Made by a program: the position numbers and the translations under genes. From Nitrospirota bacterium (GTDB taxonomy: Bacteria > Nitrospirota > UBA9217): DNA of 64,000 nt. Where the stretch lies: the NCBI GenBank assembly GCA_963663225.1, contig OY760142.1, positions 448,001 to 512,000 on the forward strand. The letters run 5' to 3'. The notes under the pieces were generated by a model. That model searched no databases. It was not told the DNA's origin and worked only from the letters and a program-made list of their open reading frames with translations. This document shows positions 34,215 to 57,992 of the stretch, one piece after another; the stretch's first letter is position 1, and the number at the start of each line of letters is the position of its first letter.

Positions 34215-35792
34215 GTGATGAAAGAAGTAAACAGAGAGGAATTTTTCCGTGAAATAACTGTCAGAATTTGCAGCAGCCTTCAAATTAAAACTGCGTTAGA
34301 GAACGTTTTCGAATACCTAAAAAATCACATTCCTCTCGATGATCTCATCCTTGGCATCCGCGATGTTAACCTCTCGGCAATAAGAATGATCAGCGATGTT
34401 ACAACAGGAATGATTGAACCCTTCGATGAAATAATTCCTATTCCCAAAGACCTCTGGGCGCGGGTTATGTCTTGGAATAAAAGAGGCCCCGTTATTATCA
34501 ATTCACTAGAAGACAGAGGCGATATCCAGCGCGCTCTCTTCTCTCTTTTAAACAAGAAATATGTGCCGTGCTCTGAAATTACTTTGCCGATCTGGATAGA
34601 AGATGAGAATCTTGGCTTTTTGCTGCTTCGTGTAAAGGGAGAAGGAAAGTATTCGTACTACCATGCGAAGTTGATGGAAAGCGTTTCTGAACCCATAGCC
34701 ATTGCACTAGCAAACGCGCTGGCTCATGAAAAATTGCTGCATTATCGGGACATTCTCATTGATGACAACCGGTTCTTAAAAAATGAGCTTCATCCGCTAA
34801 TGGATGATGAAATCATCGGCGGTAATTCTGGGCTTAGGAACGTTCTCGAGATGGTCCGGCAGGTCGCACCGCTCAACAACTCAGTCCTGCTGTTCGGAGA
34901 AACTGGCACAGGCAAAGAAGTGATAGCCAACGCCATACATTATGCATCTCATCGTAAAGACGGGCCCTTTATCAAGGTAAACTGCGGTTCTATCCCGGAA
35001 ACACTTATTGACAGTGAGCTGTTTGGTCATGAGAAAGGATCTTTTACCGGCGCTATTGCCGAGAAACGAGGACGGTTTGAACGAGCAGACGGTGGTACAA
35101 TTTTCCTGGATGAAATAGGTGAGTTGCCGCAACAAGCGCAAGTGCGGCTTCTTCGCGTGCTTCAAACGCGGGAAATAGAACGAGTCGGCGGAAACAAGCC
35201 TATCAAAATTGATATACGGGTAATCGCCGCCACTCACCGAAATTTGGAAAGTATGGTGTCCGAGAACAGGTTCCGCGAAGATCTCTGGTTCCGCTTAAAT
35301 GTTTTCCCCATCGTGATCCCTCCACTTCGGCAACGAAAAGAAGATATTCCATCACTCGCCCGTCATTTTGCTGCCCAAAAATCAATCGAACTTGGCATTT
35401 CCAACCCTCCAGTTATTGCTCCGGGCGCGTTGCAACACCTTATGGATTATGACTGGCCGGGAAACGTTCGAGAATTGGAAAATCTAATAGAAAGAGAATT
35501 AATTCGCCTCCGCGGTGGCTTGGAGGGGTATATTACCTTCGACTCCCTGCTGCCAGTTCGAAAACAGTCACCAACAGTCACCCTACAGAAGGATACAGTT
35601 GCCCTTGCAGTGTTAAACCTTGATGATGTCAATGCTATGCACATTAGTAATGTCTTAAAAATAACCAAGGGTAAAATTCACGGCCCGGGCGGTGCGGCAG
35701 AGCTGCTGGGAATTAATGCCAATACACTAAGAGGACGAATGGATAGACTGGGTATAAAATATGGCCGCACCAGAGGAAGTTATTTTTTATGA
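34215..35792 (+). CDS. sigma54-dependent activator (GAF-AAA+-Fis HTH)
   Basis: GETGTGKE, GSFTGA, LDEIGE, FREDL.FRL, WPGNVRELEN and GAAELLG motifs. Confidence 0.93.
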   Translation: MMKEVNREEFFREITVRICSSLQIKTALENVFEYLKNHIPLDDLILGIRDVNLSAIRMISDVTTGMIEPFDEIIPIPKDLWARVMSWNKRGPVIINSLEDRGDIQRALFSLLNKKYVPCSEITLPIWIEDENLGFLLLRVKGEGKYSYYHAKLMESVSEPIAIALANALAHEKLLHYRDILIDDNRFLKNELHPLMDDEIIGGNSGLRNVLEMVRQVAPLNNSVLLFGETGTGKEVIANAIHYASHRKDGPFIKVNCGSIPETLIDSELFGHEKGSFTGAIAEKRGRFERADGGTIFLDEIGELPQQAQVRLLRVLQTREIERVGGNKPIKIDIRVIAATHRNLESMVSENRFREDLWFRLNVFPIVIPPLRQRKEDIPSLARHFAAQKSIELGISNPPVIAPGALQHLMDYDWPGNVRELENLIERELIRLRGGLEGYITFDSLLPVRKQSPTVTLQKDTVALAVLNLDDVNAMHISNVLKITKGKIHGPGGAAELLGINANTLRGRMDRLGIKYGRTRGSYFL

Positions 35793-36712: not shown

Positions 36713-37861
36713 TTAGTCTTTTGCGACATCCAGCGCTCTTCGTAAATCATTTTTGATGTCTTCTACATCTTCAAGACCTACTGACAATCGAATCAATCCG
36801 TCGGTAATACCCCTCTTTAAACGTTCTTGCTTCGGCATGGCAGCGTGAGACATGGTCGCTGGATAGGAAAGAATGCTTTCCACACCACCGAGACTGACTG
36901 CTACAAGAGGAATTTTCACACTACGGAGAAATGACCGGGCCGTTGCGCCGTCCTCTAGCTCAAACGAAACAACAGCACCGCCACCGATTGATTGCTTTAA
37001 ATGAATTTCCCGTCCGGGATGATGAGGAAGCGTGGGATAATAGACGCTCACTATATCAGCCTGCTCCAGGAGCCAGTGTGCCAGCTCCACCGCAGCCTTT
37101 TGCTCTGTTTCAACTCGCGGCACCAGAGTCTTTATTCCCCGCATTAAAACCCAGCTGTCAAATGGCCCGAGTACGGCGCCGAAAGCATTTTGTATTTTTT
37201 TTATCTTGTCCGCGATACCATTATCCTTCACCACGACAACACCAGCGAGAAGATCACTGTGCCCTCCGAGAAATTTTGTGGCGCTGTGTATCGAGATGTC
37301 AAACCCGATTTCGAGAGGACGCTGCAAATACGGCGTCATAAATGTGTTATCAATAATAGTCAGAAGCTTTTGTTCGCGCGCAAGCTGGACTGTTGCGTGA
37401 AGATCCGTAATCTTCAGGAGCGGATTCGACGGAGTTTCCACAAAAATCGCTTTTGTTTCTGAAATCAGGGCTTTCTTTATGTTATTTATATCAGTTGTAT
37501 CTACAAACGTGCTCTTAAGGCCCCACTGCTCAAAGAGCGTTGTCAGAACGCGGTAGGTTCCTCCATAAACATCGGAAGATACCACAAGATGATCTCCCGG
37601 TTTAAAAAGCATGAATACGGACGAGATGGCCGCCATCCCAGAAGAGAATGCAAATCCACGGCAGCCGGATTCAAGAATAGCAACCGTGTGTTCAAGCGCT
37701 TCTCTTGTCGGATTATTACCGCGGCTATATTCATATGATCCGAAATCAACCGGGTCTTTTTGTGCGAACGTCGATGCCGTATATATCGGTACACTAGATG
37801 CTCCGGTATAGGGATCGATATCCTTTCCGGTATGAAGTATCTTTGTTCGGTAATCCATCAT
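36713..37861 (-). CDS. Cys/Met metabolism PLP enzyme (cystathionine beta/gamma-lyase-like)
   Basis: YSRGNNPTR, ETPSNP, DNTF, HSATKFLGGHSD, SLGG.ES motifs. Confidence 0.88.
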   Translation of the reverse strand: MMDYRTKILHTGKDIDPYTGASSVPIYTASTFAQKDPVDFGSYEYSRGNNPTREALEHTVAILESGCRGFAFSSGMAAISSVFMLFKPGDHLVVSSDVYGGTYRVLTTLFEQWGLKSTFVDTTDINNIKKALISETKAIFVETPSNPLLKITDLHATVQLAREQKLLTIIDNTFMTPYLQRPLEIGFDISIHSATKFLGGHSDLLAGVVVVKDNGIADKIKKIQNAFGAVLGPFDSWVLMRGIKTLVPRVETEQKAAVELAHWLLEQADIVSVYYPTLPHHPGREIHLKQSIGGGAVVSFELEDGATARSFLRSVKIPLVAVSLGGVESILSYPATMSHAAMPKQERLKRGITDGLIRLSVGLEDVEDIKNDLRRALDVAKD

Positions 37862-39054
37862 TTTAGTCCTTGCTTCCCGGCCATTCCGCCCAATGCCTGT
37901 GCCAAATCATCGATCAGGTCATCGACATGCTCAACTCCGATTGAAAGGCGTAGTAGACGGTCATTTATTCCGAGCCGTTCGCGTGTGCCTACGGGAATGT
38001 CGGCGTGCGTCTGTACTGCGGGAAACGTAATCAAAGATTCAAGTCCTCCCAGGCTTTCCGCATAAAGGAATATCTTCACCCGTTCAAGAATCTCGGGTAT
38101 AAGTGCGGCGTTATCGACTTCGAACGATATAACGGCACCGAAACCTCTGAACTGTCTACCGAACAGATGGTGCATCGGACCGTTTTCCAGCCCGGGATAA
38201 TAGACGCGCCTGACCCTTAGTTGATCCTTTAGCCAACTTGCGATCAGCATCGCGTTTTCCTGTTGCCTCGACAGTCTGAGTGGCAGGGTCTTGAGCCCTC
38301 GCAGAACGAGCCAGGAATCCAGCGGTCCCAGCACCGCTCCTGCTGCATTCTGAAAAAAACCTATTTGCTCGGCAAATTCTGGTGATTTTACCACGATAAT
38401 TCCTGCCACAACATCGTTGTGACCCGAAAGATACTTACTGGCGCTGTAAACAACAATATCGGCACCAAGATCAAGCGGTTTCTGGAGTAGCGGCGTACAG
38501 AACGTGTTGTCTACAATTGTAAGGACGCCATGATCTCTCCCGAATGCCGCAATGGCGCGGATGTCCGCAATCTTCAGCAGAGGATTCGTCGGGCTCTCGA
38601 TAAAAATCGCCTTGACACCGGTTGCCATAGTCTGTTTCACAGTATCCGTATCTGACGTGTCAATACAGACGGATTTGATACCGAAATGAGCATACCCCTT
38701 TTCAAGAAGACGAATGGTTCCTCCGTAGGGGTCCTCGGTAATTGCGATCTTGTCACCGTGCTTGAACAACCGCAGAACACAGTCGATTGCCGCCATCCCT
38801 GACGAGAAGGCAAAGGCTTTGCTGCCATTGTCAAGCGTAGCCATGGTCTCTTCCAGCGCCTGCCGGGTAGGATTTACCGTCCTCGAATAGTCATATCCTG
38901 TGCTTTTCCCAAGGCCCGGATGTCTGAAGGTTGCCGTCTGATAGATGGGCATCGAAACCGCTCCCGTCCGCTCCTCCCACCTGCTGCCGGCCTGGGCCAG
39001 CAGTGTTTCTATCTTCATCGTGTTTACTATCCTTTCATGAATTTGTTGTTCCAT
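37858..39054 (-). CDS. Cystathionine gamma-synthase-like PLP enzyme
   Basis: PIYQTATFRHP, YSRTVNPTR, SASKYLSGHND, QTHADIP motifs. Confidence 0.88.
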   Translation of the reverse strand: MEQQIHERIVNTMKIETLLAQAGSRWEERTGAVSMPIYQTATFRHPGLGKSTGYDYSRTVNPTRQALEETMATLDNGSKAFAFSSGMAAIDCVLRLFKHGDKIAITEDPYGGTIRLLEKGYAHFGIKSVCIDTSDTDTVKQTMATGVKAIFIESPTNPLLKIADIRAIAAFGRDHGVLTIVDNTFCTPLLQKPLDLGADIVVYSASKYLSGHNDVVAGIIVVKSPEFAEQIGFFQNAAGAVLGPLDSWLVLRGLKTLPLRLSRQQENAMLIASWLKDQLRVRRVYYPGLENGPMHHLFGRQFRGFGAVISFEVDNAALIPEILERVKIFLYAESLGGLESLITFPAVQTHADIPVGTRERLGINDRLLRLSIGVEHVDDLIDDLAQALGGMAGKQGLK

Positions 39055-39142: not shown

Positions 39143-40072
39143 TCATAACTCCTGAAACATCGGCGTACTAAGATATCGCTCGCCGGTGTCCGGAAGCACT
39201 GCTACAATTAATTTGCCCTTGTTTTCAGGCCGTTTCGCAATCTGAAGCGCCGCGAATGTTGCGGCTCCTGATGATATTCCAACAAGCAATCCCTCGGTCC
39301 TGCTCAAAAGCCTGCCTGTTTCAATTGCTTCTTCATTCTTTACCTTGAACACTTCATCGACAATTTTTGTATTCAATACCTGTGGAACAAATCCGGCACC
39401 GATGCCTTGAATTTTATGCGGTCCCGGCTGTCCTCCAGACAATACTGGAGAATCGAACGGCTCAACAGCCACCACTTTAAATCCGGGTTTCTTTGCTTTA
39501 ATGATTTCTCCCACACCGGTAATAGTGCCACCCGTGCCCACACCGCCCACGAGAATATCGATCGCCCCATCAGTGTCTTCCCATATCTCTTGTGCGGTTG
39601 TTTCTCGGTGGATCTGGGGATTGGAAGGATTTTTGAACTGCTGCGGTACAAATGAATTAGGAGTCTGGGCAGCAAGCTCTTCGGCTTTTTCTATCGCCCC
39701 TTTCATGCCTTTTGCACCGGGAGTCAGAACAAGTTCTGCACCGTATGCCTTCAGGAGATTCCGGCGTTCCACGCTCATAGTGTCAGGCATGGTCAAAATA
39801 AGCCGATACCCGCGCGCCGCTGCGACAAACGCAAGGGCAATCCCGGTATTGCCGCTCGTCGGTTCAATAATCACCGTGTCTTTCTTAATTAATCCTTTTT
39901 CTTCCGCATCCTTAATCATGCTGAAACCGATTCTATCTTTTACACTTCCGCCAGGATTGAATGATTCAAGCTTCGCCACCACTTTTGCATCAATTCCTTT
40001 GCTTACTCGCTGCAAATGAAGCAGCGGAGTTTTGCCGATGATATCTGTCAGATTACTGTAGATCTTGCCCAT
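39143..40072 (-). CDS. cysK: Cysteine synthase A
   Basis: [40 protein letters not shown] motifs. Confidence 0.96.
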
Positions 40073-40307: not shown

Positions 40308-41192
40308 TCAAGACCGCATTCCCCATTTATAGACGGTATATCGCTCAAGAACGCGAAAAATGAAGTTCTCAAAGAGAAAACCTACAAGGATAACAGTAAA
40401 CAGCCCAGCGAACACGGAGTCTGTTTCAAGCTGGTTCTTTTTTTCATAGATAAACCAGCCCAGCCCGCCGGATCCGGAACTCACGCCAAAGACTAGTTCA
40501 GCGGCAATCAGAGTGCGCCACGCAAATGCCCAGCCGATTTTCAGACCGGTAACAATACTCGGAAATGCCGCAGGTATCAATATTTGGACAACGTAGCGCA
40601 GACCGGTGAGTCCGTAGTTTCTTCCCACCAGGCGCAGTGTGGGAGTAATGCCGGAAAAACCGGAAAGCGTATTGAGCGCTATCGGCCAGAGTACAGCATG
40701 AATAAGAACAAACACGATGCTGGGTGTACCGAGGCCGAACCACAGCAGTGCCAGCGGCAGCAAAGCAATGGCCGGCAGAGGATTGAACATGGACGTAAGC
40801 GTATCCAGCAGATCGGCGCCAATACGGGAGCAGATCGCAAATATGGAAAGTGTGGCAGCCGCAAGAATGCCGCCTGCATAACCGGTAAACAGAACTTTGA
40901 GCGATACAAAAATCCGAGATATAAGCTCTCCGCTTGCGAGCGCATCAAAAAGGGCCATTATCATTGTACTAAAACTCGGAAGCAGCAGGTCGTTGTTCAG
41001 CCAGCCAGCGTAGATTTGCCACAGAAATGCCATCAGGACAAGAAGAGCAATTTTTCTGACCAGCCCTATCTCCCAGACACGCCTTCCCAGTGACAGTGGC
41101 TGCTTCGTTTCTTCGGAGGTCGTGAATTCTTTTTCTGAAATAATATGTTCTTTCACCAAAACATCTGCTGCTATCGATTCATTTCTGCTCAC
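40308..41192 (-). CDS. NitT/TauT-family ABC permease
   Basis: NPLPAIALLP and AWRTLIAAEL...GLGW motifs. Confidence 0.9.
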   Translation of the reverse strand: MSRNESIAADVLVKEHIISEKEFTTSEETKQPLSLGRRVWEIGLVRKIALLVLMAFLWQIYAGWLNNDLLLPSFSTMIMALFDALASGELISRIFVSLKVLFTGYAGGILAAATLSIFAICSRIGADLLDTLTSMFNPLPAIALLPLALLWFGLGTPSIVFVLIHAVLWPIALNTLSGFSGITPTLRLVGRNYGLTGLRYVVQILIPAAFPSIVTGLKIGWAFAWRTLIAAELVFGVSSGSGGLGWFIYEKKNQLETDSVFAGLFTVILVGFLFENFIFRVLERYTVYKWGMRS

Positions 41193-41207
41193 ACCGCTCC
41201 CCCCAGC

Positions 41208-42008
41208 TCATATACTGTAGTCAAATGCATCTTTAAATAATATCTTTCGTATCCGCTCACTGATGCTATTAAAAAGTTCATTCCCTGCCCTGCCGAGATC
41301 GGATACATTTACCATAAGTTCGGCCCGAATCCTTCCCGGGTGCGGCGAGAGCAGAATAATGCGATCGCCAAGCAGGACTGCTTCCGGAATGGAATGAGTG
41401 ACAAAAAGCATTGTGAATTGTATTTCATTCCAGAGTGCCAGAAGTTCATCCTGCATCTTTTGGCGTGTCAAGGCATCGAGAGCCGCAAAAGGTTCATCCA
41501 TCAAAATTATTTCCGGTTTCATGGCCAGACAACGCGCAATGGCAACACGCTGTTTCATGCCACCCGACAATGTATGAGGGTAGGCATGAACAAATTTTTC
41601 AAGTTTCACCTTGCGCAGAAAATGCAGAGCCTGCTCTTCTGCCTCCGGTCTCTTCATCTTTCCGCTTGCGGTCAACGCGAACACCACGTTTTCCTTGACT
41701 GTTTTCCAGGGAAACAGCTGGTCGAACTCCTGAAAGACCATGACCCTGTCCGGACCGGGCCCGCTTATTATGCGGTTTTCCCGCAGGATACAACCTACAG
41801 TCGGTTTTAGATGTCCGGCGATTGCTTTTAACAAGGTCGATTTTCCGCAGCCTGAGGGCCCCAGGAGTACAAGGCGGTCCGAGCGAAATACATCAAAGCT
41901 TACATCCCGTACTGCAGTGACCAGATGATCCCGGGTCTTGTACTGCAACGTAACGTCCTTTGCGCTCAGGACCGGATCTGTCCTGTCGGATGCAATGATA
42001 TCGTTCAT
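41208..42008 (-). CDS. NitT/TauT-family ABC ATPase
   Basis: GPSGCGKST, LSGGMKQR, DEPFAALD, VTHS motifs. Confidence 0.92.
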   Translation of the reverse strand: MNDIIASDRTDPVLSAKDVTLQYKTRDHLVTAVRDVSFDVFRSDRLVLLGPSGCGKSTLLKAIAGHLKPTVGCILRENRIISGPGPDRVMVFQEFDQLFPWKTVKENVVFALTASGKMKRPEAEEQALHFLRKVKLEKFVHAYPHTLSGGMKQRVAIARCLAMKPEIILMDEPFAALDALTRQKMQDELLALWNEIQFTMLFVTHSIPEAVLLGDRIILLSPHPGRIRAELMVNVSDLGRAGNELFNSISERIRKILFKDAFDYSI

Positions 42009-43027
42009 CAGCTTCCTTTCTTGCCGTGAACATTGGGGAAAAAGAGGTCTTTCCAGTTCTTCGGTTTTGTTTTGATCGATCCTGTTTGGTACATGAAATC
42101 CGAAAACTTCGTGATGTTAAGAGGCGTGGTTGTATAACTGAGTGAAGGATGGTTTATCTGCGCGAACAGATCATTCGGGCTTTCCTTCGTTTTGCTCGAT
42201 TTGATATAAATATCCACCGCTGCACGTTTGTTCTTTTGAATAAACGAGATGGCCTCCTCAAGCGCAGCAAAGACAGCAGCGTATGTGTTTGGATTTGCTT
42301 CATAAAATGTCTTTGTTGTGGAAAGCACATTAAACGTGTGCGGCCCTCCTAGGACGTCGAATGAGTTCAACACGGTATGCACCCGTTTGTCATCCAGTTC
42401 CTGGAACATGAATGGAGGGCTGGTCAGATGTGCGATAACCTCCGACCTGCCGGACAGGAGAGCGGCCATTCCATCAGGATGTTTCATTGAAACAGTTAAA
42501 CGGTCTAGTCTGGCATAATTCTGATTGCCGAATGCCTTTGCAGCGGCCATCTGCAGAACGATTGCCTGGATGGATACTTTAACGGTCGGCAGCGCAATCC
42601 GGTCTTTGTCGGTAAAATCATTGATTGATTTAATCGCAGCATTATTGGTATTCAGATAGAGAGGAGAACTGTCCAAAGCAGCCACCCCCTTGACTTTACC
42701 GTTGGTCTTCGCCCAAAGTATGATCAACGGAGCTACCCCGCTTGAAACGTAATCCACACTTCCTGAGAGAAGAGCATCATTGACCGCTCCGCCTCCGCCA
42801 AGCGTAGCCCAAATTACCTTAATATCGCCCAATCCTGATGCCTTCGCATGCTTTTCTACGAGTTTCTGCTCTTCCATAACAATAAGAGGCAGGTACCCTA
42901 ATCCGTACTGCTTTGCTATGCGCACTTGTGTCACTTCTGCTGCCGCGATTGGTATCATGACTGCCAACATCATGATTGACAGCATAAGTGATCCCAATAT
43001 TCTGTAAATATGTTTTATTTTAGACAT
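42008..43027 (-). CDS. Sulfonate-type ABC substrate-binding protein
   Basis: Signal peptide; QYGLGYLPL, NDALLSG, IALP.VKVS.QA motifs. Confidence 0.85.
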   Translation of the reverse strand: MSKIKHIYRILGSLMLSIMMLAVMIPIAAAEVTQVRIAKQYGLGYLPLIVMEEQKLVEKHAKASGLGDIKVIWATLGGGGAVNDALLSGSVDYVSSGVAPLIILWAKTNGKVKGVAALDSSPLYLNTNNAAIKSINDFTDKDRIALPTVKVSIQAIVLQMAAAKAFGNQNYARLDRLTVSMKHPDGMAALLSGRSEVIAHLTSPPFMFQELDDKRVHTVLNSFDVLGGPHTFNVLSTTKTFYEANPNTYAAVFAALEEAISFIQKNKRAAVDIYIKSSKTKESPNDLFAQINHPSLSYTTTPLNITKFSDFMYQTGSIKTKPKNWKDLFFPNVHGKKGS

Positions 43028-43502
43028 ATTTTTTTTCCTTTCGCGTAATTTTATCGAGATGCTTGAAATAGGGCCGTGCGGTTTCTTCCTCAGACTTCCG
43101 TGCCGAGAATGTTTGATCGATCACCTCGTCTGGAGTGATGATCCAAACAGCAGCGAGGTCCGCATCCTCCAGCGTTTCCCTCACTTTTGTGTAGTATTTC
43201 CGGAACACGGGTCCGGCAACATGCGCTTTGACCGGCCGGCCTTTAATCTGATAGCTGATGTCATCCTCTCCATAAATCGACACCGCAACATTCCGGCCGA
43301 ACCAGATGCTTCTCACCATGTTTTTGTTGCTTTTTGACGATTCCAGCAGCTCAAGGCACACAAGATTTCCATCTTTATCAGCATGGATCGATTGTTTAAC
43401 AACTGCATGGGGATTACCGTTCTCATCCGAGGTGGCCAGAACTTTGACCGTGGATTTATCTTCCAACAGCTTCGCAATAGACTGAGTAATTTTTTGTGGC
43501 AT
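43020..43502 (-). CDS. Pyridoxamine 5'-phosphate oxidase-like FMN-binding protein
   Basis: KVLATSDENGNPH, SYQIKG; start at the ATG after AAGGAG. Confidence 0.75.
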   Translation of the reverse strand: MPQKITQSIAKLLEDKSTVKVLATSDENGNPHAVVKQSIHADKDGNLVCLELLESSKSNKNMVRSIWFGRNVAVSIYGEDDISYQIKGRPVKAHVAGPVFRKYYTKVRETLEDADLAAVWIITPDEVIDQTFSARKSEEETARPYFKHLDKITRKEKKYV

Positions 43503-43515
43503 CTTTCTCCTTTCC

Positions 43516-44769
43516 TTATAACAACCGTGCGAGATCGGAATTGGGATGATTGCCGCAACGGCGGTAATCATCGAAATCAAGGCCTACGTTGTACTTTTTC
43601 TGTTGTTCATGCAGACCTTTAGTCAACCGAATGAAATACTCCAGTGAAGGATTTTTCTGACCGGCAAAGAATGAACCGGGACGCGGTATCCATACCGTAA
43701 AAACAGTTCCAACACCACGCTCGGCAAGAGACTCGGCCTCTGCAAGCGTTGCAGCCAAGGCATCATCTTCGTTTTTAAAGCCGTGAGGCCTCGCCATTTC
43801 AGCTCCGGCCACAATACAGGTGTCCACCATGCCCCTTCCAAAAACATCAACTGCTCCTATCAAACGGTTTTTCCATTCCTGATACCCAACCCATTTCGCT
43901 TTTCCAGGGCAGATCCAGTTAAATGCTTTTTCGTCCAGGATTTCAATATCAGACGTATAGCTCAGTAAGCCCGTTTCTTGATGGAGCCGTTCGAGCTGTT
44001 TAACGGTAAAGGCCGTGGCTATCAATTGGCTCGGAAACTTGGGCACGGCAAAAGCATCTCCTACAGCCTTAAGCAAATCAATATAATATTGTACTTCAGC
44101 ATCGAATGGTTCCGGACCATGCGGATTCGATCCGGAGGTAAGGCAGACCGCGCTGAATCGACCCGGTTCTTTCAACGCTTCCCTGGTTGTTTCTGTAACA
44201 TCCGCAGGCTTTATCCGCGTGGGCAATCCTATTTCGCTTTTCTGCTTTTTTAGGTTGTTCACAATATCGCAAAATCGGCATTCTTCGCCGTCTTTCCAAA
44301 AGTGGCAAAACCGGTCCGCCATTATATAGAGGCGTTGCGGCCGTGAACTCGCCACATGCTGCATAAGCACGCCTGAACTCGTTTTTTTATCGTAGTAAAA
44401 GGGTTTTGGCCAGAACTCTACCTCTTCTATGGTTTCCTCATCATCAATCAGAACCAGTTTCCCTTCGCGGTAATCCACAATATACGGATTCTCAGCAATA
44501 GACGTAGGCGTCGATATGACCGATGTGCCGTCGCGAAGCAAAAGCGATTCAGGACGATGGGTAAGTTTGCCGTCCCTCGTGCCGAAAATATGTGTGCCGC
44601 CGGTCTGGTGAAGCGCGGGATCGACCCGGTCGAGAGCCCGGTCCGTGTAATAGACGCCCCGGCGGTGTACATCTGTCTTGATGATGATCAACCGCGGTAT
44701 TTCAGGATATTTATCCGCCACTTCCTGTAATGTCAGTTCCTGTCTTCCGAGAGACAACAGTATTGCCAT
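43516..44769 (-). CDS. Uncharacterised radical SAM protein (C-x8-C-x2-C)
   Basis: CHFWKDGEECRFC, LTSGS, ICPGK, C-terminal YRRCGNH. Confidence 0.75.
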   Translation of the reverse strand: MAILLSLGRQELTLQEVADKYPEIPRLIIIKTDVHRRGVYYTDRALDRVDPALHQTGGTHIFGTRDGKLTHRPESLLLRDGTSVISTPTSIAENPYIVDYREGKLVLIDDEETIEEVEFWPKPFYYDKKTSSGVLMQHVASSRPQRLYIMADRFCHFWKDGEECRFCDIVNNLKKQKSEIGLPTRIKPADVTETTREALKEPGRFSAVCLTSGSNPHGPEPFDAEVQYYIDLLKAVGDAFAVPKFPSQLIATAFTVKQLERLHQETGLLSYTSDIEILDEKAFNWICPGKAKWVGYQEWKNRLIGAVDVFGRGMVDTCIVAGAEMARPHGFKNEDDALAATLAEAESLAERGVGTVFTVWIPRPGSFFAGQKNPSLEYFIRLTKGLHEQQKKYNVGLDFDDYRRCGNHPNSDLARLL

Positions 44770-44835: not shown

Positions 44836-44911
44836 AAAAATAGCTGACCGAATCAACAGAGAGCACAGGGGATTTACGTCACCCTTGTCGCCTCCAGTTG
44901 ACTGGTCAGCT
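44836..44911 (-). ncRNA. Putative attenuator leader RNA, copy A
   Basis: GCTGACCAGTCAACTGGAGGC...GTTGATTCGGTCAGCTATTTTT; near-duplicate at 48842-48915. Confidence 0.6.
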
Positions 44912-45013: not shown

Positions 45014-45331
45014 TTATATGCAACCCGTAGGTTTTGGGAGTCCGGCCACTTTATAAACACCTCGAATGCAGCTACAAGAAAACAGTGCGCGAATTTCTTT
45101 AAAGGTAAAACCTGTCTCTTTACAAAGTTTTCGTGTCATAGGTGCAGAGCCAAATTTATTGAAATAATCACGCAAGTAATAAATCACTTTCCAGTGATCC
45201 GGCGTCAACAGGTAAATTTTATCGAGCGCTGCCAGGTATGCAGCAATTTCGACAGTCCAGTCATTTAACTCTATGAGAAATCCATCTTCGTCGATTTCAA
45301 TGTTCATTTTATTCACCTCCATAGCATCCAC
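45014..45331 (-). CDS. TusE/DsrC-family sulfur relay protein
   Basis: DEDGFL, LTPDHW.VI.YLR, C-terminal AGLPKPTGCI. Confidence 0.88.
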   Translation of the reverse strand: MDAMEVNKMNIEIDEDGFLIELNDWTVEIAAYLAALDKIYLLTPDHWKVIYYLRDYFNKFGSAPMTRKLCKETGFTFKEIRALFSCSCIRGVYKVAGLPKPTGCI

Positions 45332-45475
45332 ACAGAGTTATCCTCCTGACTGATTGCCTTTAAAACGTGCATAAAAGCGATGCTCATCACAAAAAAAACC
45401 CGGCTTGAACTATACAAACCGTTTCGTCAAAAAAATGATTCAGTTGGTTTAAAGGCACTATATTTAAAAGCCTCC

Positions 45476-45805
45476 TCAGACTTTCTGTATCAGCAGAACC
45501 CAATGATCTTTGATTTTTTCCCGGTTCAAGACGATGTTCCCCTGCTGCACCACCGACGCGGGAACACTTTCCGCCGGAACTCCGTCATCAAGCAAGACTT
45601 CAAGTATTTCGCCTGATTTCATGGAAGCCAAGTCGAGTTTTATTTTTACGAAGTTCATGGGACAGACAACCCCACGATAATCCTTGAACCGACCTGCGGT
45701 ATTGGTGGATTTTGCAGCTACCATCTGTTTCGTTTCAGCAGTCGCTTCCGCATTTGCCTTAACCTCGTCGGATTCATTCCTTCGCAAATTTTTAGGACCG
45801 ATCAT
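45476..45805 (-). CDS. TusA/SirA-family sulfurtransferase domain protein
   Basis: DYRGVVCPMNFVKIKL and LDDG.P.ESVP motifs. Confidence 0.8.
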   Translation of the reverse strand: MIGPKNLRRNESDEVKANAEATAETKQMVAAKSTNTAGRFKDYRGVVCPMNFVKIKLDLASMKSGEILEVLLDDGVPAESVPASVVQQGNIVLNREKIKDHWVLLIQKV

Positions 45806-46203
45806 TAATCTATTACCTCCAGGTCTTCATTCTCTACTATGCCATTTCTTATTTTGAATGCCTTCACTTGTTCCTTTCTTTCTGCAAGTGATACGATGAC
45901 ATAACTGACGCAGGGATCGACGGCAAGTTTTATATCCTCTCTAGATGGCCGAGCAGGTGTTGTCGGATGTGAGTGATATACTGCCAGGAGGGTCAAACCC
46001 CGTACACGAACTTTTTTTAAAACAGAGAACTGTTCCCGAACGTCGAACGTAAAATGTTCAAAAGAATTGTCAATATTTTTCATTTTATGATGAACACTAA
46101 TAATCCCGCCATCACCTGCGAGATAACCGCAAGCTTCAATCGGCAGTTCCTCCCGTGCATGTGCAAGAATATTTTCCAGCACGCTTCTATATATCTTGAG
46201 CAT
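45805..46203 (-). CDS. JAB/M67 metalloprotease (Mec/HcyD-like)
   Basis: EACGYL and YHSHP...ARPS.ED (JAMM motif). Confidence 0.9.
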   Translation of the reverse strand: MLKIYRSVLENILAHAREELPIEACGYLAGDGGIISVHHKMKNIDNSFEHFTFDVREQFSVLKKVRVRGLTLLAVYHSHPTTPARPSREDIKLAVDPCVSYVIVSLAERKEQVKAFKIRNGIVENEDLEVID

Positions 46204-46207
46204 CTCT

Positions 46208-47017
46208 TTATCCTTTTTTCAAGTCACAGACTGCCTGTTCTCCGTCTACAAGCTCATGTATGCTCGGTCTTTCACCGCACACCGGGCAGTGATCGTTCTT
46301 CTTCACAGCCACTTTGCGAAAATCCATTTTTTTTGCATCAAAATGAAGCAGACTGTTATAAAGCGGCATACCTGCACCCGTTATATATTTCAATGCCTCT
46401 GTAGCCTGGATTGTTCCCAGCATACCCCCAATTGCTCCTAAGACTCCGGCGGAAGAACACGTGGGCACACTGTTTGTGGGTGGCGGCTGTTCAAATATGC
46501 AGCGATAACAGGCAGTTTCGCCCGGTTTAACAGTTATGGCCTGCCCGGAAAAGCGCAGAATACCCCCATGAGAAAACGGTATTCGGTTCAATACGCAGGC
46601 ATCGTTAATAAGAAATTTCGATGCAAAATTATCCGTGCCGTCAACAACAAAATCATATTCCCGAATGATAGCTGAAATATTCGCAGCACATAAATACTCT
46701 TTATACACGTTAACCCGTACATGAGGATTTATTGCCTGTATTTTTGCGGCGGCCGAAACGGCCTTGGCAGAACCGACATCCGATGTAAAGTGAACAATCT
46801 GCCTCTGCAGATTGGATATTTCCACATTATCGGCATCCGCAATCCCAATGGTACCCACGCCAGCTGCGGCAAGATAGAGCGCAACCGGCGAGCCGAGCCC
46901 TCCAGCGCCGATAATAAGTACCCGGGCTGAGCTGATTTTTTCCTGACCATCTATCCCCACTTCTTCAAGAATAATATGCCTGCTATAGCGCTCAAGATAT
47001 TCCTCGCTGACTTCCAT
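46208..47017 (-). CDS. MoeB/ThiF adenylyltransferase (HcyF-like)
   Basis: RYSRH, GAGGLG, SNLQRQ, DGTDNF, CYRC...CPVC motifs. Confidence 0.92.
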   Translation of the reverse strand: MEVSEEYLERYSRHIILEEVGIDGQEKISSARVLIIGAGGLGSPVALYLAAAGVGTIGIADADNVEISNLQRQIVHFTSDVGSAKAVSAAAKIQAINPHVRVNVYKEYLCAANISAIIREYDFVVDGTDNFASKFLINDACVLNRIPFSHGGILRFSGQAITVKPGETACYRCIFEQPPPTNSVPTCSSAGVLGAIGGMLGTIQATEALKYITGAGMPLYNSLLHFDAKKMDFRKVAVKKNDHCPVCGERPSIHELVDGEQAVCDLKKG

Positions 47018-47019
47018 TT

Positions 47020-48255
47020 CTATCCTTTCATCGCAAGAGCCTGTTCAATATCATGGATTAGGTCCTCTCTGTCTTCAATCCCCACACTCATCCTAATCAA
47101 CGAGTCACTGACGCCTGCAGATTGTTTTTCCTGCTCGCTCAATTGCGCCATGATAGTCGATCCGGCATGTATACAGAGTGTTTTATTATCATGCAGATTC
47201 GTTGATCTTCGTATAATCTGGAGAGCATTAATAAATGCAAAACAGTCACTCCGTGATTTCAACTCAAAACTGACTACACAGCCTGGAAAAAGCAGAAATT
47301 GTTTTTGTGCAATGCCATAAAACCGTGACTTCCTAAGTCCTGGGTAATGAACCGTTACGACTTCTTTTTTTCCCGCAAGGTACTCCGCGATATCCCGCGC
47401 GTTTGAACAAGCCCGTTCCATTCTTAGTGCTAGCGTTTCAAGTCCTAGAGACAACAGGTAGGCATTGTGTGGGGCCAAGCATCCGCCAAGATATCTGCTA
47501 ATTTGTTTTCTAATTTTTGCTATCAAAGCAAATGGACCAAATTTTTTTGCATACTGGGCAAGCATTCTGTTGTTGTTCCAGTCATAGCTTCCATTATCAA
47601 TAATAAGCCCTCCCAATACTGTTGCGCCGCCGGAGATGGCCTTTGTTGCCGACAGCACTTCAATATCAACTCCATAATCTTTTGAATTGAAAAGATAAGG
47701 AGGTGTCATGGTCGTATCTGCGATAAGAACCAAATTATATTTCTTTGCAAGTTCCGAAAAAGCTCCGATATCCGGCACAGTAAGAAGGGGATTTGAGATC
47801 GTCTCAACATACAGTGCTCGCGTATGATCGTCGATAAGTGCTTCGCACCCTTTCAGATCCAAGGGATCTATAAAACGTACTTCTATGCCAAGTTCTCCTA
47901 ATGTGTCCTTAAAAAAAGAATACGTATCGCCGAAGAGAAACTTGCTTGCAATCAGGTTGTCCCCCGCTCCGGCTACCGCCAAAATTGCGTTCGTAATAGC
48001 AGCCATGCCCGAAGACAATGCAGCGACTGCAGAGGACCCTGTCACATTTTTAATACGCCGTTCGAAGTCCTCAACTGTCGGATTAGTAATCCGGGTATAT
48101 GCGTGAGCATTTTTCCGTCCCAAAAAAGCCGCTTCCATTTCCTCAGCACTTTCGAGTTCGAAAGAAACACAGTCATATACCGGCATTCTGAGTGCTCCAT
48201 GCCGATCAACAGTAGAAAATGGTGAATGAATTGCCTTTGTAGTAAAACCAATCAT
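47020..48255 (-). CDS. O-acylhomoserine sulfhydrylase-like PLP enzyme
   Basis: YTRITNPT, SSGMAA, ETISNP, SATK, TNL.DNKTL motifs. Confidence 0.85.
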   Translation of the reverse strand: MIGFTTKAIHSPFSTVDRHGALRMPVYDCVSFELESAEEMEAAFLGRKNAHAYTRITNPTVEDFERRIKNVTGSSAVAALSSGMAAITNAILAVAGAGDNLIASKFLFGDTYSFFKDTLGELGIEVRFIDPLDLKGCEALIDDHTRALYVETISNPLLTVPDIGAFSELAKKYNLVLIADTTMTPPYLFNSKDYGVDIEVLSATKAISGGATVLGGLIIDNGSYDWNNNRMLAQYAKKFGPFALIAKIRKQISRYLGGCLAPHNAYLLSLGLETLALRMERACSNARDIAEYLAGKKEVVTVHYPGLRKSRFYGIAQKQFLLFPGCVVSFELKSRSDCFAFINALQIIRRSTNLHDNKTLCIHAGSTIMAQLSEQEKQSAGVSDSLIRMSVGIEDREDLIHDIEQALAMKG

Positions 48256-48473
48256 ACAATCTCACTCTCCCCGCCGCCCATAAAATACACAAACTCCACC
48301 TCATCCCCATCTTTCAAAAGTGTTGCTAAAAATCGTTCCTTCTTTACAAAAGCACCGTTCACCTGTACCGCAACGGTATCGAGATTCTTAACCCGCTCAA
48401 TCACAAGCAATTCGGAAACAGGGATCTCCTTTTTCTCTATGTTTCGCTGCTGACCATTTATCTTGATATTCAA
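48252..48473 (-). CDS. ThiS-like sulfur carrier with C-terminal extension (HcyS-like)
   Basis: Ends VEFVYFMGG-GESEIV; TTG start after GGAGG. Confidence 0.85.
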   Translation of the reverse strand: MNIKINGQQRNIEKKEIPVSELLVIERVKNLDTVAVQVNGAFVKKERFLATLLKDGDEVEFVYFMGGGESEIV

Positions 48474-48841: not shown

Positions 48842-48915
48842 AAAAAAGCTGACCAAATCAACAATTAGCACAGGGGATTTACTACACCCTTGTAGCCTCC
48901 AGTTGACTGGTCAGC
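48842..48915 (-). ncRNA. Putative attenuator leader RNA, copy B
   Basis: GCTGACCAGTCAACTGGAGGC...GTTGATTTGGTCAGCTTTTTT, just downstream of yezD. Confidence 0.62.
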
Positions 48916-48995: not shown

Positions 48996-49187
48996 TCATA
49001 TTTGATAATCCCACGAGTTGTACTTGTCATATCTTATTTTTTCTGTTTTATCAATCTGCACTACCTTGGAATCGTGGATAGTTATTTCGACACTTCCATA
49101 TTGCAGACTTTTGATGGCTTTCAAAATACTCAACAGAAGCTTTTTTTCATGGTTTTCAAGACTATTTATATCAGCCGTTTTTTGCAT
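48996..49187 (-). CDS. yezD: YezD/OscA (DUF2292) small sulfur-starvation protein
   Basis: LQYGSVEITIHDSKVVQIDKTEKIR. Confidence 0.85.
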   Translation of the reverse strand: MQKTADINSLENHEKKLLLSILKAIKSLQYGSVEITIHDSKVVQIDKTEKIRYDKYNSWDYQI

Positions 49188-49260
49188 TTAGATACTCACT
49201 TGTAAACTTCTGTCGATATTTATTAGTCTATGTTTCGTCATAAAATTCTGCTAATTATAT

Positions 49261-49276
49261 TGCAATAGACGTGCCA
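49261..49276 (-). promoter_or_regulatory. sigma54 promoter for the yezD operon
   Basis: TGGCACGTCTATTGCA on the minus strand. Confidence 0.82.
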
Positions 49277-49404: not shown

Positions 49405-49674
49405 CTATCCACCAGATACAGCTGGGATTATTAAGAGCTCGTCTCCATCTTTTACTACCGTCTGTTCTGATTGTAAAAACCGTATGTCTTCTTCGTTTAT
49501 GTACAGACTGATAAATCTCCTGATTTTTCCATTTTCGCTAATTTTTCCCGCAAGACCGGGAAATTGTCGTTCAAGATTATCTATGATCTCTATCACGGTA
49601 CCGGGTGCGGCCAAAACTTCCTCCGTGCCGATAATACTCCGTAATGGAGCAGGTATTTTTATCTTCACAGTCAT
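49405..49674 (-). CDS. MoaD/CysO-like sulfur carrier
   Basis: KIPAPLR, IN.EDIRFL, ends IIPAVSGG. Confidence 0.88.
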   Translation of the reverse strand: MTVKIKIPAPLRSIIGTEEVLAAPGTVIEIIDNLERQFPGLAGKISENGKIRRFISLYINEEDIRFLQSEQTVVKDGDELLIIPAVSGG

Positions 49675-49711
49675 TTTAGACACCCTTACATGTCGGTCTG
49701 CATATTTTCCA

Positions 49712-50212
49712 TCAATATCGTCTTTGACGCCGTGCAGTGATGATTTCCGTGTTCATGCCTGCCCAGTGCAGTCCCCCAAGATACCGGCCATGTTCCATTT
49801 TTATACATTTATCCATGACTACGGAAAGCCCTGCGTCCAAGGCTTTCTCCGCAGCCTCGAAATTCACTATCTTTAATTGCAACCAGACGGCCTTTGCGCC
49901 AATCGCGATCGACTGCTCGACTATAGGCATCACTTCTGCTGACGGCCTGAAAATGTTCACGAGGTCAATTTTCTCAGGAACACATGTCAGGTTTGGATAA
50001 CATACTTGCTCCAAGATTTTACCTCCACGCGGACTTACGGGAATAACTCTGTAGCCTTCATACAGCAGATACGATCCTACAAAATAACTTGCTTTTTGGC
50101 GGTCTGATGAAAGACCTACTATTGCTATGGTTTTTGTAGTATTCAAGAGGCCGCAAATCGCATCGGTATTCTGATATCGTTCACGCTGTTCTGGTGTGAG
50201 CGTCGTATTCAT
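49712..50212 (-). CDS. CoA-binding protein
   Basis: IAIVGLS, DLVNIFRPS, AVWLQL, VMDKCIKMEH motifs. Confidence 0.85.
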   Translation of the reverse strand: MNTTLTPEQRERYQNTDAICGLLNTTKTIAIVGLSSDRQKASYFVGSYLLYEGYRVIPVSPRGGKILEQVCYPNLTCVPEKIDLVNIFRPSAEVMPIVEQSIAIGAKAVWLQLKIVNFEAAEKALDAGLSVVMDKCIKMEHGRYLGGLHWAGMNTEIITARRQRRY

Positions 50213-50214
50213 GC

Positions 50215-51510
50215 TTATATCGCATGCAGCGCCTGTTCCAAATCCCATAATAAATCCTCCACTGTTTCCAAACCGATCGACAAACGAATCAGTCCCGGAC
50301 CTATACCACCCAGTTTCAGCTCTTCATCCGAAAGCTGCTGGTGCGTCGTTGAGGCGGGGTGTATAACAAGACTGCGGGCATCACCTACATTGGCTAGATG
50401 TGAGAATAGCTGCAATGATTCAATAAACTTTTTTCCTGCCAGCCGCACGTCGCCGGAAGCAGGCTTAATATCAAAAGAAAAAACGGCCCCCGGTCCTTTC
50501 GGCAAATATTTTTTCGCACGGTCATAGTGGGGATGATCCGGCAGCCCCGCATAGTGCACCTGCGCCACCTGCGGGTGCTGTGTGAGAAAATTTGCGACTT
50601 TACGTGCGTTCGCAACGTGGCGTTCCATACGGACAGAAAGTGTTTCCAATCCCTGAAGCAGCAAAAATGAGTTCATCGGAGATATGCAGGCGCCGGTATC
50701 ACGTACTGTTTCAACACGGAGTTTCATAAGGAACCCATAATGGCCAAAAGTATCGTAAAAACGCAGGCCGTGATATGAAGGTGATGCATCCGCAATCGTC
50801 GGATACTGTGAATAATCAAAGTTTCCAGATTCTACTACAACACCTCCGATGCTCGTTCCATGTCCTCCGATGAATTTTGTCGCTGAATGGAGAACGATGG
50901 TAGCACCCCAGTCAATCGGACGACAAAGATAGGGTGTGGCAAAGGTACTATCCACGATGAGCGGAATGCAGTTGCTTTTGGCAAGCGAAGCTAGAGGTTC
51001 CAAGTCCAAAATTCCTCCGCCCGGATTTCCAATAATTTCACCGAATAGCGCCCGAGTTTTCGGCGTTATGGCTTTTTCCCAGGCATTATTATCGGAGGGA
51101 TCCGCAAAATGCACCTGTATGCAAAGTTTATTCAAGGTGTGCGTCAGTTGGGTCATGGTTCCGCCGTAAAGCTGAGAAGAAGCGACTATTTCGTCTCCCG
51201 GAGATAACAGAGTCATAAATGTTGCAAATTGCGCTGCCATACCGCTTGCTACAGCCACAGCACCGGTACCGTTATCCAATGACGCTATTCGTTCCTCAAG
51301 TGCTGCCGTCGTCGGATTGCTGATGCGTGTGTATATATTACCGTATTGCTTAAGATCAAAAAGTTGGGCTGCTTGTTCCGTATCACTAAATACATATGAT
51401 GTTGTCTGATAAATAGGAACCGCGCGGGCTCCCACAACCGGATCTGGTATATGGCCAGCATGAACCATGCGCGTCTCAAATCCAAATTTTCTTTTATCAA
51501 TGTGCGGCAT
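50215..51510 (-). CDS. metY: O-acetylhomoserine sulfhydrylase
   Basis: PIYQTTSY, GNIYTRI.NPT, HSATKFIGGHG, HLANVGD..SLVIHPASTTHQQL motifs. Confidence 0.9.
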   Translation of the reverse strand: MPHIDKRKFGFETRMVHAGHIPDPVVGARAVPIYQTTSYVFSDTEQAAQLFDLKQYGNIYTRISNPTTAALEERIASLDNGTGAVAVASGMAAQFATFMTLLSPGDEIVASSQLYGGTMTQLTHTLNKLCIQVHFADPSDNNAWEKAITPKTRALFGEIIGNPGGGILDLEPLASLAKSNCIPLIVDSTFATPYLCRPIDWGATIVLHSATKFIGGHGTSIGGVVVESGNFDYSQYPTIADASPSYHGLRFYDTFGHYGFLMKLRVETVRDTGACISPMNSFLLLQGLETLSVRMERHVANARKVANFLTQHPQVAQVHYAGLPDHPHYDRAKKYLPKGPGAVFSFDIKPASGDVRLAGKKFIESLQLFSHLANVGDARSLVIHPASTTHQQLSDEELKLGGIGPGLIRLSIGLETVEDLLWDLEQALHAI

Positions 51511-51523
51511 ATCCCTTGTCCCT

Positions 51524-51964: not shown

Positions 51965-51989
51965 GAGGCCTCTCCCATCGATACAGGTT

Positions 51990-57090: not shown

Positions 57091-57303
57091 AATACAACAT
57101 ATATTAGTGACAATATGACAGGATGTCAAGAGCTTATTGATGCTTAAGCAGAATACCTTTTTCCTGTCTGTTTAGCCATCACCGTACCTATCATCAAAGA
57201 TTTAAGACCGCAGAAAAGGCATATTTGGAGGATTTTTTAAACAGATTATTGCTACTAACTATTATAAGGTGTTCCGTCTGTCGAGACGAGTGGACTTGCA
57301 CTG

Positions 57304-57906: not shown

Positions 57907-57992
57907 CCGAGTTAATCTCCATAAAAATGGAGAGGCGGGTAGCAATTAAAAATAAGCGGCAATGCTGCCCACCTCTCGATTATATCCGTATG

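Follow-up and report, generated by a model that had tools for sequence, protein, structure and literature searches.

Among the described operons for sulfonate scavenging, those of the Escherichia coli type, SsuEADCB and TauABCD, combine an ATP-binding cassette (ABC) importer of the SsuA/TauA family with a desulfonating enzyme and stand among sulfur-starvation genes. The same arrangement, with an enzyme whose desulfonating role is predicted, recurs in a 64,000-nucleotide (nt) stretch of DNA from a Nitrospirota bacterium (GenBank assembly GCA_963663225.1, contig OY760142.1, positions 448,001 to 512,000), the whole of which is called the window below: five genes at 40308-44769 encode a variant radical S-adenosylmethionine (SAM) protein, a small split-beta-barrel protein and the three parts of an importer. 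This cassette differs from the known operons in that its own genome has no SsuD, TauD or SsuE, the place of the enzyme being taken by the radical SAM protein and its split-barrel partner, and in that the transporter parts score below the cut-offs of the SsuABC and TauABC families. We lean slightly towards reading the five genes as a portable, oxygen-independent sulfur-scavenging operon composed of a sulfonate importer and a two-subunit radical SAM enzyme. The parts of this reading are not equally secure: a role in sulfur scavenging is likely, cleavage of a carbon-sulfur bond by the radical SAM pair is a little better than an even bet, and a sulfonate as the substrate falls a little short of one.

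Reports that strict anaerobes can live on alkyl- and arylsulfonates as sole sulfur source go back a long way in the Clostridium literature. To our knowledge, the oxygen-independent enzymes so far described handle activated C2/C3 sulfonates only: Xsc, the glycyl radical lyases and, since 2024, the nitrogenase-like Isr. The isethionate reductase IsrBHDK of Rhodobacter capsulatus occurs with SsuCAB, and the accessible part of its description presents a system for anaerobic sulfonate-sulfur assimilation with an SsuABC-type importer and a radical SAM protein (PMC11423573). The cassette would share with Isr the anaerobic assimilation of sulfonate sulfur by an importer and a radical SAM protein, and in Geobacter-type loci NifH/NifB-like genes lie near the cassette and share its leader. 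Isr is nitrogenase-like, however, whereas the genome of the window, which is 99% complete, has no nitrogenase-like component and no convincing NifH (best PF00142 match, 50.5 bits). The identity of the window protein with IsrB was ruled out from the published description, the accessible part of which makes IsrB BciD-like (PMC11423573), and not by sequence comparison. The glycyl radical sulfonate lyases IslA/IslB and HpsG/HpfG provide another oxygen-independent radical route, with a SAM-derived radical start and C-S cleavage to sulfite, as the accessible parts of two papers describe it (PMC6453916, PMC8473560). In contrast, no glycyl radical enzyme recurs beside the cassette, none of the neighbor families present in at least 5 of the 79 loci compared below being PFL-like; the glycyl radical enzyme that the window does hold lies 26 kb from the cassette and has an activase of its own.

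Provisionally, then, the locus looks to us like an operon of a familiar type in which both the enzyme and the regulatory element are new, the enzyme belonging neither to ssu/tau, nor to Isr, nor to the glycyl radical lyases. A literature search found no paper on the function of this radical SAM family, its partner or the leader motif, a result that is itself provisional as most subscription journals lay outside its coverage.

The Cassette and Its Importer

The five genes lie on the minus strand in the order radical SAM protein (43516-44769; 417 amino acids [aa]; above the cut-off of NF045502), split-barrel protein (43020-43502; 160 aa; PNPOx/FMN-binding-protein-like by a sub-cut-off PF01243 match and by fold), periplasmic or lipoprotein-type substrate-binding protein of the NitT/TauT (SsuA/TauA/NMT1) family (42008-43027; PF13379), ATPase (41208-42008; PF00005) and permease (40308-41192; PF00528). 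By their coordinates, 13 nt separate the first gene from the second and 15 nt the fourth from the fifth, while the second overlaps the third by 8 nt and the third the fourth by 1 nt; because of this tight spacing we take all five to form one operon. An earlier reading of the letters alone (the sequence-only reading) had described such a tightly spaced run of five genes, and all five were found in place. The open reading frame (ORF) listed for the split-barrel protein begins at a TTG (43580), the conserved start being an ATG 26 codons inside it (43502). The absence of SsuD and TauD, which the same reading had noted, extends to the whole genome, and the radical SAM protein is present there in one copy.

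From its sequence the importer clearly belongs to the sulfonate-type (SsuA/TauA) superfamily, and a sulfonate ligand is predicted for it. The window binding protein passes PF13379 (37.5 bits; cut-off 24.7) but stays below the SsuA_fam model TIGR01728 (85.6 bits, below 163.5) and PRK11553 (19.3 vs 299). The TauABC and SsuABC models are the best or near-best named matches of the other two parts, the ATPase scoring highest in NCBIfam against TauB (211.3 bits; cut-off 357) and reaching 159.6 against SsuB (cut-off 395), and the permease scoring 119.1 against SaoP, 102.8 against SsuC (cut-off 347) and 89.2 against TauC (cut-off 342), all below cut-off. When a profile of the cassette-linked binding proteins was compared with the PDB, TauA (6.6e-71), E. 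coli SsuA (7.4e-60) and a Xanthomonas SsuA-type protein (1e-49) came first, and chains for other NitT/TauT ligands (nitrate, bicarbonate, HMP and others) followed at lower rank. What the sequence-only reading called a TauABC-like transporter is thus upheld as a family relation, through PF13379 and this profile, but all three parts fall short of the TauABC and SsuABC cut-offs. A Sao label was rejected, the SaoA and SaoP scores in NCBIfam being far below cut-off; the accessible part of a preprint describes Sao as a selenoprotein/organometallic system (bioRxiv 10.1101/2022.07.06.499078).

Conservation and Neighbors

Of 8000 candidates scored against the radical SAM protein, 1008 are homologues at E <= 0.001, and the best 120 of these are 59-91% identical to it. 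Among the matches listed the hosts are Bacillota, Geobacter and other Deltaproteobacteria, Campylobacteraceae and Candidatus Contendobacter, and the loci fetched with their flanks add Chlorobiaceae and further groups. Hidden Markov models built from our own alignments and run over six-frame translations gave 86 full-length copies, 74 of them with at least 700 nt on both sides. The partner gene is adjacent and on the same strand in 60 of these 74, an SsuA/TauA-like binding protein lies on the same strand within 4 kb in 62, and both are present in 51.

Neighbors were counted in 79 loci with flanks, obtained from the best 80 of 224 genomic matches. The permease (57 loci) and ATPase (49) are followed by PALP enzymes of the CysK/ThrC-like type (18), MetY (16), SAM synthetase (12), a GNAT gene placed after the partner gene (9), NifH-like proteins (8), acyl-CoA synthetase and 2-oxoacid:ferredoxin oxidoreductase subunits (6-8), an Rrf2/CymR-like regulator (6), a luciferase-like monooxygenase (6), a small sulfite reductase (5) and a B12-dependent radical SAM protein (5). 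Of the 18 PALP proteins, about 6 have the size of CysK and about 12 a length near 400 aa; the single ~400-aa protein tested is threonine-synthase-like (PRK08197, 613.7 bits). The presence of SAM synthetase (MetK) in 12 loci fits a stoichiometric consumption of SAM. The representative of the luciferase-like family passes the SsuD equivalog model (543.2 bits vs 518.2), and in 5 Campylobacteraceae loci ssuD lies directly upstream of the partner and radical SAM genes on the same strand. There the order is ssuD, small protein, radical SAM protein, binding protein, permease, ATPase, and an SsuE-like gene was not seen; this is the layout expected if an oxygen-dependent and an oxygen-independent enzyme share one importer.

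Several loci (L003, L036, L052, L055, L071) carry variant radical SAM paralogues side by side with separate binding proteins, and up to three occur in a single locus (L003), each with a divergent binding protein of its own. Such adjacency suggests a diversified substrate range. The cassette-linked binding proteins share 17-59% identity and the radical SAM proteins about 60%, a pattern that fits one chemistry applied to many imported substrates. Within the window's taxonomic family the radical SAM gene occurs in 3 of 61 genomes, its own included, and copies in other phyla share 60-67% identity with the window protein; this patchiness, combined with high identity across phyla, points to an accessory and probably horizontally moving module. 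In eight Geobacter/Chlorobi loci (L012, L015, L017, L018, L031, L036, L038, L040) a conserved string of genes lies downstream of the cassette, consisting of a C45/AAT-like acyltransferase, an acyl-CoA synthetase and 2-oxoacid:ferredoxin oxidoreductase subunits, which could serve for disposal of the carbon skeleton or as a source of low-potential electrons.

The same neighbors bear on the main alternative, which keeps the scavenging and changes the substrate: a thioether or other S-alkyl compound, such as S-methyl or S-alkyl cysteine, a methylthio-alkanol or a DMSP-like compound, would be imported, and methanethiol or sulfide released for MetY, a ThrC-like enzyme or CysK. We consider it rather improbable, though much in the neighborhoods speaks for it. 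MetY and the CysK/ThrC-like proteins are the commonest enzyme neighbors and sulfite reductase is rare; a cluster of a RuBisCO-like protein, a cupin and MetY lies just upstream in the window; and in 9 loci a GNAT gene comes after the partner gene, N-acetylation being the first step by which Bacillus salvages S-alkylcysteine aerobically. NifH/NifB-like genes, too, occur in these neighborhoods and share the leader motif, and nitrogenase-like systems release methanethiol or sulfite in sulfur salvage, according to the accessible parts of two papers (PMC13474568, PMC11423573). Against this stand the preference of the binding-protein profile for TauA and SsuA, the five loci in which SsuD, a sulfonate enzyme, is directly upstream on the same strand, and the lack of any thioether-specific enzyme that recurs beside the cassette.

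A Shared Leader Element

The 244-nt gap before the radical SAM gene contains a 75-nt element (44836-44910, minus strand) in which a conserved 20-nt core, CUGACCAG-UCAA-CUGGAGGC (44890-44909), is set within a 68-nt stem that ends in a U-run. A second copy (48842-48915, minus strand; core 48895-48914) lies upstream of a small ORF and the ThiS-like/MetY/ThiF/JAB/TusA operon. The first copy folds at -37.5 kcal/mol (z -5.2) and the second has a z of -3.5. In this genus the 5' half of the core forms the 5' arm of the long terminator stem, so that the small hairpin of the core and the terminator should be mutually exclusive.

The core, with the consensus CUGACCAG-NNAA-CUGGAGGC, is found again in loci of Geobacter type and in those of Syntrophomonadaceae and Pelotomaculum, its hosts being Bacillota and Geobacter-type genomes; it is intergenic and each time followed immediately by a terminator hairpin and U-run. 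It is found in 12 of 401 genomes of the window's phylum, at 17 places as against 1 for a reversed control pattern; two further matches in the window's own genome, with 2 mismatches each, lie inside long ORFs and were set aside as chance. The motif stands before radical SAM cassettes in the window, L012, L063, L081 and the permease-first cassette of L005, and elsewhere the genes 3' of it encode NifB-like, NifH-like, sulfate-binding and porin-like proteins, MetY and MetK, and in 3 genomes the small sulfite reductase. Its positions outside the window include L010:14316, L010:6572, L012:3081, L012:7868, L017:3619, L018:423, L060:6167, L063:7662, L065:6160, L081:7857 and sites in L086-L101.

In an alignment of 29 sequences the 4-bp hairpin of the core is paired in 98.3% of cells, and 3 of its 4 pairs show one double-sided change each (CCGG/CCGG, CUAG/CUAG, UCAG/CUGA), which 0 of 500 shuffles reached; the covariation gives modest support, because the search pattern already held both arms and each change is a single event. 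None of 4227 Rfam covariance models matched either window copy or one Geobacter copy at gathering score, and in E-value mode the matches were at chance level and far below gathering. The sul1 motif (known to us from the accessible part of PMC5737381) is present in Rfam and was rejected as a candidate, having no match to the leader. SAM riboswitches occur in 3 of 17 scanned loci (L076, twice; L067; L005) and precede metY, metK or other genes, never the radical SAM gene itself. Clostridial loci without the motif carry SAM riboswitches before metK or metY, and the motif thus holds a comparable regulatory position.

As judged from its sequence, the leader is a candidate sulfur-status attenuator, which might be a binding site for a protein or a small riboswitch embedded in the terminator. 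Being shared with sulfur genes, it ties the cassette to the sulfur regulon independently of gene order, and cassette expression is probably set by sulfur status through it.

The Radical SAM Protein

The CX8CX2C motif reported by the sequence-only reading (C155, C164, C167) is invariant in all 12 sequences of an alignment that covers several phyla at 59-67% identity. The protein is recognised as a radical SAM protein only by the NCBIfam domain model NF045502, "variant_rSAM" (189.6 bits, cut-off 125, residues 29-386), and by a barrel fold. The spacing differs from the canonical CX3CX2C, and the accessible part of the RadicalSAM.org description lists CX8CX2C variants within the superfamily (PMC9477430). 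No Pfam family, PF04055 (Radical_SAM) included, matches the window protein at E <= 0.001, and a precomputed PF04055 match exists for a minority of the homologues. The extra C-terminal cysteine of the earlier reading is C405, in the invariant DDYRRCGNHP; C209, in CLT(S/A)GS, and C287, in CPGK, which it had not mentioned, are likewise invariant in the 12 sequences, as are many Arg and Lys residues. Radical SAM chemistry, that is, cleavage of SAM to the 5'-deoxyadenosyl radical, is predicted from these motifs and from the model.

The AlphaFold2 (AF2) model (pLDDT 82.4, pTM 0.87) has a radical SAM barrel and an extra N-terminal domain of about 135 aa. Its closest folds are LipA (Z 16.2, root mean square deviation 3.5, 245 aligned) and HydE (Z 15.8), with LIAS, HydG, PylB, MqnE, BioB, ThiH and NosL among the further matches, all at 11-15% identity; the top 45 VIA rows are radical SAM enzymes, with a Foldseek probability of 1.00. 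At such identities, and with Z around 14-16 across many radical SAM functions, no fold match singles out a function. The full barrel and N-terminal domain set the protein apart from the glycyl radical activase PflA (LipA Z 16.2 vs PflA 13.9). Like LipA, BioB and HydE (Z 14.5-16.2), it has a full barrel and additional cysteines that possibly hold a second cluster, and its C-terminal motif, which reaches back into the barrel, is reminiscent of the C-terminal ligand of LipA. It differs from them in the cysteine spacing of the SAM cluster, in having no LipA or BioB auxiliary motifs in the alignment and in a genomic context that is catabolic or scavenging.

These likenesses nevertheless raise the possibility that the radical SAM pair is biosynthetic. 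It would then resemble BioB or LipA in inserting sulfur or forming a cofactor, its product would be required under sulfur shortage, and the transporter would import a precursor. Several of the enzymes with the closest folds (LipA, HydE, HydG, PylB, BioB, ThiH) use sulfur or an Fe-S cluster sacrificially, the three extra invariant cysteines could hold such a cluster, and the JGI label of some family members is "biotin synthase-related". The fold matches are generic, however, the N-terminal cysteine motif of LipA was not seen in the 12-sequence alignment, and both the patchy distribution and the multiple paralogues per locus, with their different binding proteins, fit an accessory nutrient module better than a cofactor pathway. 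We hold this alternative to be quite improbable.

The sole named sequence relative is the MSMEG_0568 family (TIGR04043; 64.4 bits against a cut-off of 303.7, E 8.5e-18), which we take to be the radical SAM protein of the Nit1C cluster; in the ESM Atlas the clusters of the window protein's own family are called just "hypothetical" or "radical SAM". The accessible part of the Nit1C description places its radical SAM protein nearest to the "biotin synthase-related" COG2516 genes and gives it a GNAT neighbor (PMC1199592), as in the 9 loci here. The window protein is far below the family cut-off, and the Nit1C context is one of nitrilase and cyanide/nitrogen, not sulfur. This relative, together with the nitrate, bicarbonate, HMP and other ligands of NitT/TauT importers, is what could be said for a cassette that scavenges a non-sulfur nutrient, for example nitrogen as in Nit1C, amid incidental sulfur genes; yet several phyla have sulfur genes repeatedly beside the cassette, sulfur genes alone share its leader motif, and no nitrilase or AIR-synthase-like neighbor appears among the families found in at least 5 of the 79 loci, so that we think this very improbable.

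The Split-Barrel Partner and the Predicted Complex

The small protein clearly has a split beta-barrel fold in its AF2 model (pLDDT 88.3), for which the top Foldseek matches are HupZ (E 2.2e-7, TMt 0.82-0.86) and the Desulfovibrio vulgaris FMN-binding protein (TMt 0.70), the FMN-binding protein Swol_0183 matching as well. As a PNPOx-like protein, the description given by the sequence-only reading, it holds clearly by fold (HupZ, FMN-binding proteins) but weakly by sequence, its PF01243 score being 21.5 bits against a gathering cut-off of 28.1; 8 of 16 family members match PF01243 at E <= 0.01, the best at 1.1e-6. Residues E51, E54, S56, W67, G97, Y104, H148 and D150 are invariant. The flavin of the "flavoprotein" in that reading is a prediction from the split-barrel fold, one that we consider probably correct; what has gained firmer support is the protein's place as a conserved, predicted stoichiometric partner of the radical SAM protein (ipSAE ~0.86).

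Predictions of the complex gave ipSAE values of 0.87, 0.86 and 0.83, as against 0.01 for the best control, with a contact agreement of at least 93% and a partner pLDDT of at least 88. The mark used for such scores is reached by 116 of 157 solved complexes and by 2 of 215 mismatched pairs, counts that hold just roughly here because our own alignments were used. On the radical SAM side the modelled interface is formed by residues 25-28, 77-81 and 120-121 of the N-terminal domain and by segments 201-204, 403 and 415-416, which flank the invariant C209 and C405. It includes invariant residues of both proteins (R79-D80-G81, G203-R204 and R403 of the radical SAM protein; W67, G97 and Y104 of the partner). 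The model thus predicts that the two proteins form a two-subunit enzyme, in which the split-barrel protein would be a stoichiometric subunit and more than a mere neighbor. No fusion of the two was found among the 120 listed homologues, the only long one of which (P0086, 562 aa) is extended at its N-terminus by a stretch that does not resemble the partner; a search for longer homologues, weak evidence in itself, found nothing at E <= 1e-30.

That the split-barrel protein is instead a flavin reductase, standing in for SsuE beside an SsuD-type monooxygenase while the radical SAM protein has an unrelated or maturation role, would suit a fold class that includes flavin reductases and the 5 Campylobacteraceae loci in which ssuD adjoins the small protein and no SsuE-like gene was seen, but it is hard to credit when most loci and the whole of the window's genome keep the pair in the absence of SsuD, and when 60 of 74 radical SAM genes have the small-protein gene beside them and the complex predictions place its product on the radical SAM protein.

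Proposed Mechanism

In the reading that we favor, an importer of the SsuA/TauA type would take up an organosulfur compound, most likely an aliphatic sulfonate, from which the radical SAM and split-barrel enzyme would free the sulfur as an inorganic or simple species. The 5'-deoxyadenosyl radical derived from SAM would abstract the C1 hydrogen of the sulfonate, and the resulting carbon radical would lose one electron by way of the partner's cofactor and/or of a second Fe-S site; the candidates for that site are the invariant C209, C287 and C405. Addition of water and collapse of the 1-hydroxysulfonate would then yield an aldehyde and sulfite, the products of the SsuD reaction; alternatively, a reductive cleavage would give an alkane and sulfite. 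Abstraction of hydrogen followed by oxidation is the logic of the radical SAM dehydrogenases, such as the anaerobic sulfatase-maturing enzyme. SAM would be consumed at each turnover, which fits the metK genes beside the radical SAM gene in 12 loci. Reduction of the sulfite would take place elsewhere (the window's genome encodes two adjacent candidates for this step, NIR_SIR proteins of 402 and 356 aa), and the sulfide would be taken up by the neighboring CysK, MetY or thiocarboxylate carrier towards homocysteine and cysteine.

A number of observations weigh against this scheme. The enzymes commonest beside the cassette (MetY, CysK, ThrC-like) use sulfide or methanethiol, and with sulfite reductase nearby in just 5 of 79 loci a thiol or thioether-derived product fits at least as well as sulfite. 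The ligand of the window binding protein may be no sulfonate, given that the protein is divergent, scoring below the SsuA_fam cut-off and having no match of its own in the PDB. As for the enzyme, no member or close relative of the radical SAM family with a known reaction was found, a search of PDB sequences with its profile gave no match, and the listed homologues are named in their sources just "radical SAM protein" or "hypothetical". The invariant residues of the split-barrel protein are largely acidic (E51, E54, D150) plus H148, and HupZ, its closest structural match, binds haem. In 14 of the 74 copies the radical SAM gene has no adjacent partner, most of these being second copies in multi-copy loci or members of one Campylobacteraceae subgroup. 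Finally, the neighbor counts come from a simple ORF caller, a top-scoring subset of loci and many related, non-independent metagenome-assembled genomes.

On the whole, the organosulfur scavenging proposed by the sequence-only reading is partly supported, its sulfur component drawing on the conservation across phyla, the sulfur neighbors, SsuD, the TauA/SsuA profile and the shared leader. We also put forward a more far-reaching proposal, which we regard as speculative and doubtful as a whole: the pair would represent a new class of two-subunit radical SAM desulfonases, the oxygen-independent counterparts of SsuD for unactivated sulfonates, which would have spread horizontally across the anaerobic phyla and would be switched by an undescribed terminator-embedded riboswitch that senses a sulfur-status metabolite such as SAM.

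The Sulfur Island and the Rest of the Window

The cassette sits midway in a sulfur island of about 18 kb, and its position between sulfur-relay genes and cysK is as the sequence-only reading had it. Its upstream flank is a sulfur-carrier operon on the minus strand (45014-48473), which Pfam and NCBIfam resolve into a ThiS-like carrier (48255-48473), a MetY-like sulfhydrylase (47020-48255), a ThiF/MoeB E1 (46208-47017), a JAB peptidase (45805-46203) and TusA-like (45476-45805) and DsrC/TusE-like (45014-45331) proteins. We take the ThiS-like/MetY/ThiF/JAB set to be arranged as in the protein-thiocarboxylate routes that lead to homocysteine and cysteine. The C-terminus of the ThiS-like carrier is GG followed by a six-residue tail, presumably trimmed by the JAB peptidase, by analogy with the CysO/Mec+ and HcyS/HcyD thiocarboxylate systems, in which, as we understand them, such a tail and peptidase likewise go together. 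Downstream of the cassette are cysK (39143-40072, minus strand; TIGR01139, 483.7 bits, cut-off 350.95) and, next after it, cystathionine gamma-synthase/lyase and beta-lyase genes (36713-39054; PF01053).

Further upstream, a cluster on the minus strand (49405-53995) contains a RuBisCO-like protein of form IV, whose best matches are MtnW-type and below cut-off, with an alpha/beta hydrolase, a cupin, a second MetY, a CoA-binding protein and a second ThiS; it resembles methylthio-sugar salvage routes, which supply methanethiol to MetY. An exact sigma-54 promoter consensus, TGGCACgtctaTTGC (49262-49276, minus strand), lies within 49005-49276, and 3' of it a DUF2292 small protein gene (49005-49187, minus strand) stands just 5' of the second leader copy; the window also encodes, at 34215-35792 on the plus strand, a sigma-54 activator that has a GAF domain. 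The island is bordered by a region (55873-63687) with an integrase, an AAA/DUF4143 protein and a XamI/Eco57I-type restriction-modification fusion, and this border, with the patchy distribution of the cassette, hints at horizontal acquisition.

Elsewhere in the window, the glycyl radical enzyme mentioned above belongs to a locus on the minus strand (13673-21000) with its activase, an HMGL-like aldolase, an MFS transporter and GntR regulators; it scores 763.5 bits against the PFL2-3 subfamily and passes no specific equivalog, the sulfopropanediol dehydratase models giving 555-560 bits against a cut-off of 1000. Two MtmB-superfamily methyltransferases, a corrinoid protein, a RACo-type reductive activase, a DUF1638 protein and a sodium:solute symporter (3467-12639, minus strand) make up what looks like a locus for corrinoid-dependent demethylation of methyl compounds, and MlaA and phospholipase A1 genes are also present, which would suggest a diderm Firmicute as host.

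Significance

The old question of how sulfonate sulfur is assimilated without oxygen is here reduced to a few experiments. A widespread and conserved radical SAM pair, tied to importers of the SsuA/TauA type and, in the Campylobacteraceae loci, to SsuD as well, is a testable candidate for a general anaerobic route to this sulfur, with practical bearing on sulfur cycling in sediments and guts and on the anaerobic desulfonation of xenobiotic sulfonates. The leader motif, for its part, offers a handle on the sensing of sulfur status in anaerobes outside the S-box and CysB paradigms. If the reading proposed here is true, a large orphan family of radical SAM proteins with an unusual cluster motif would gain a function as well.

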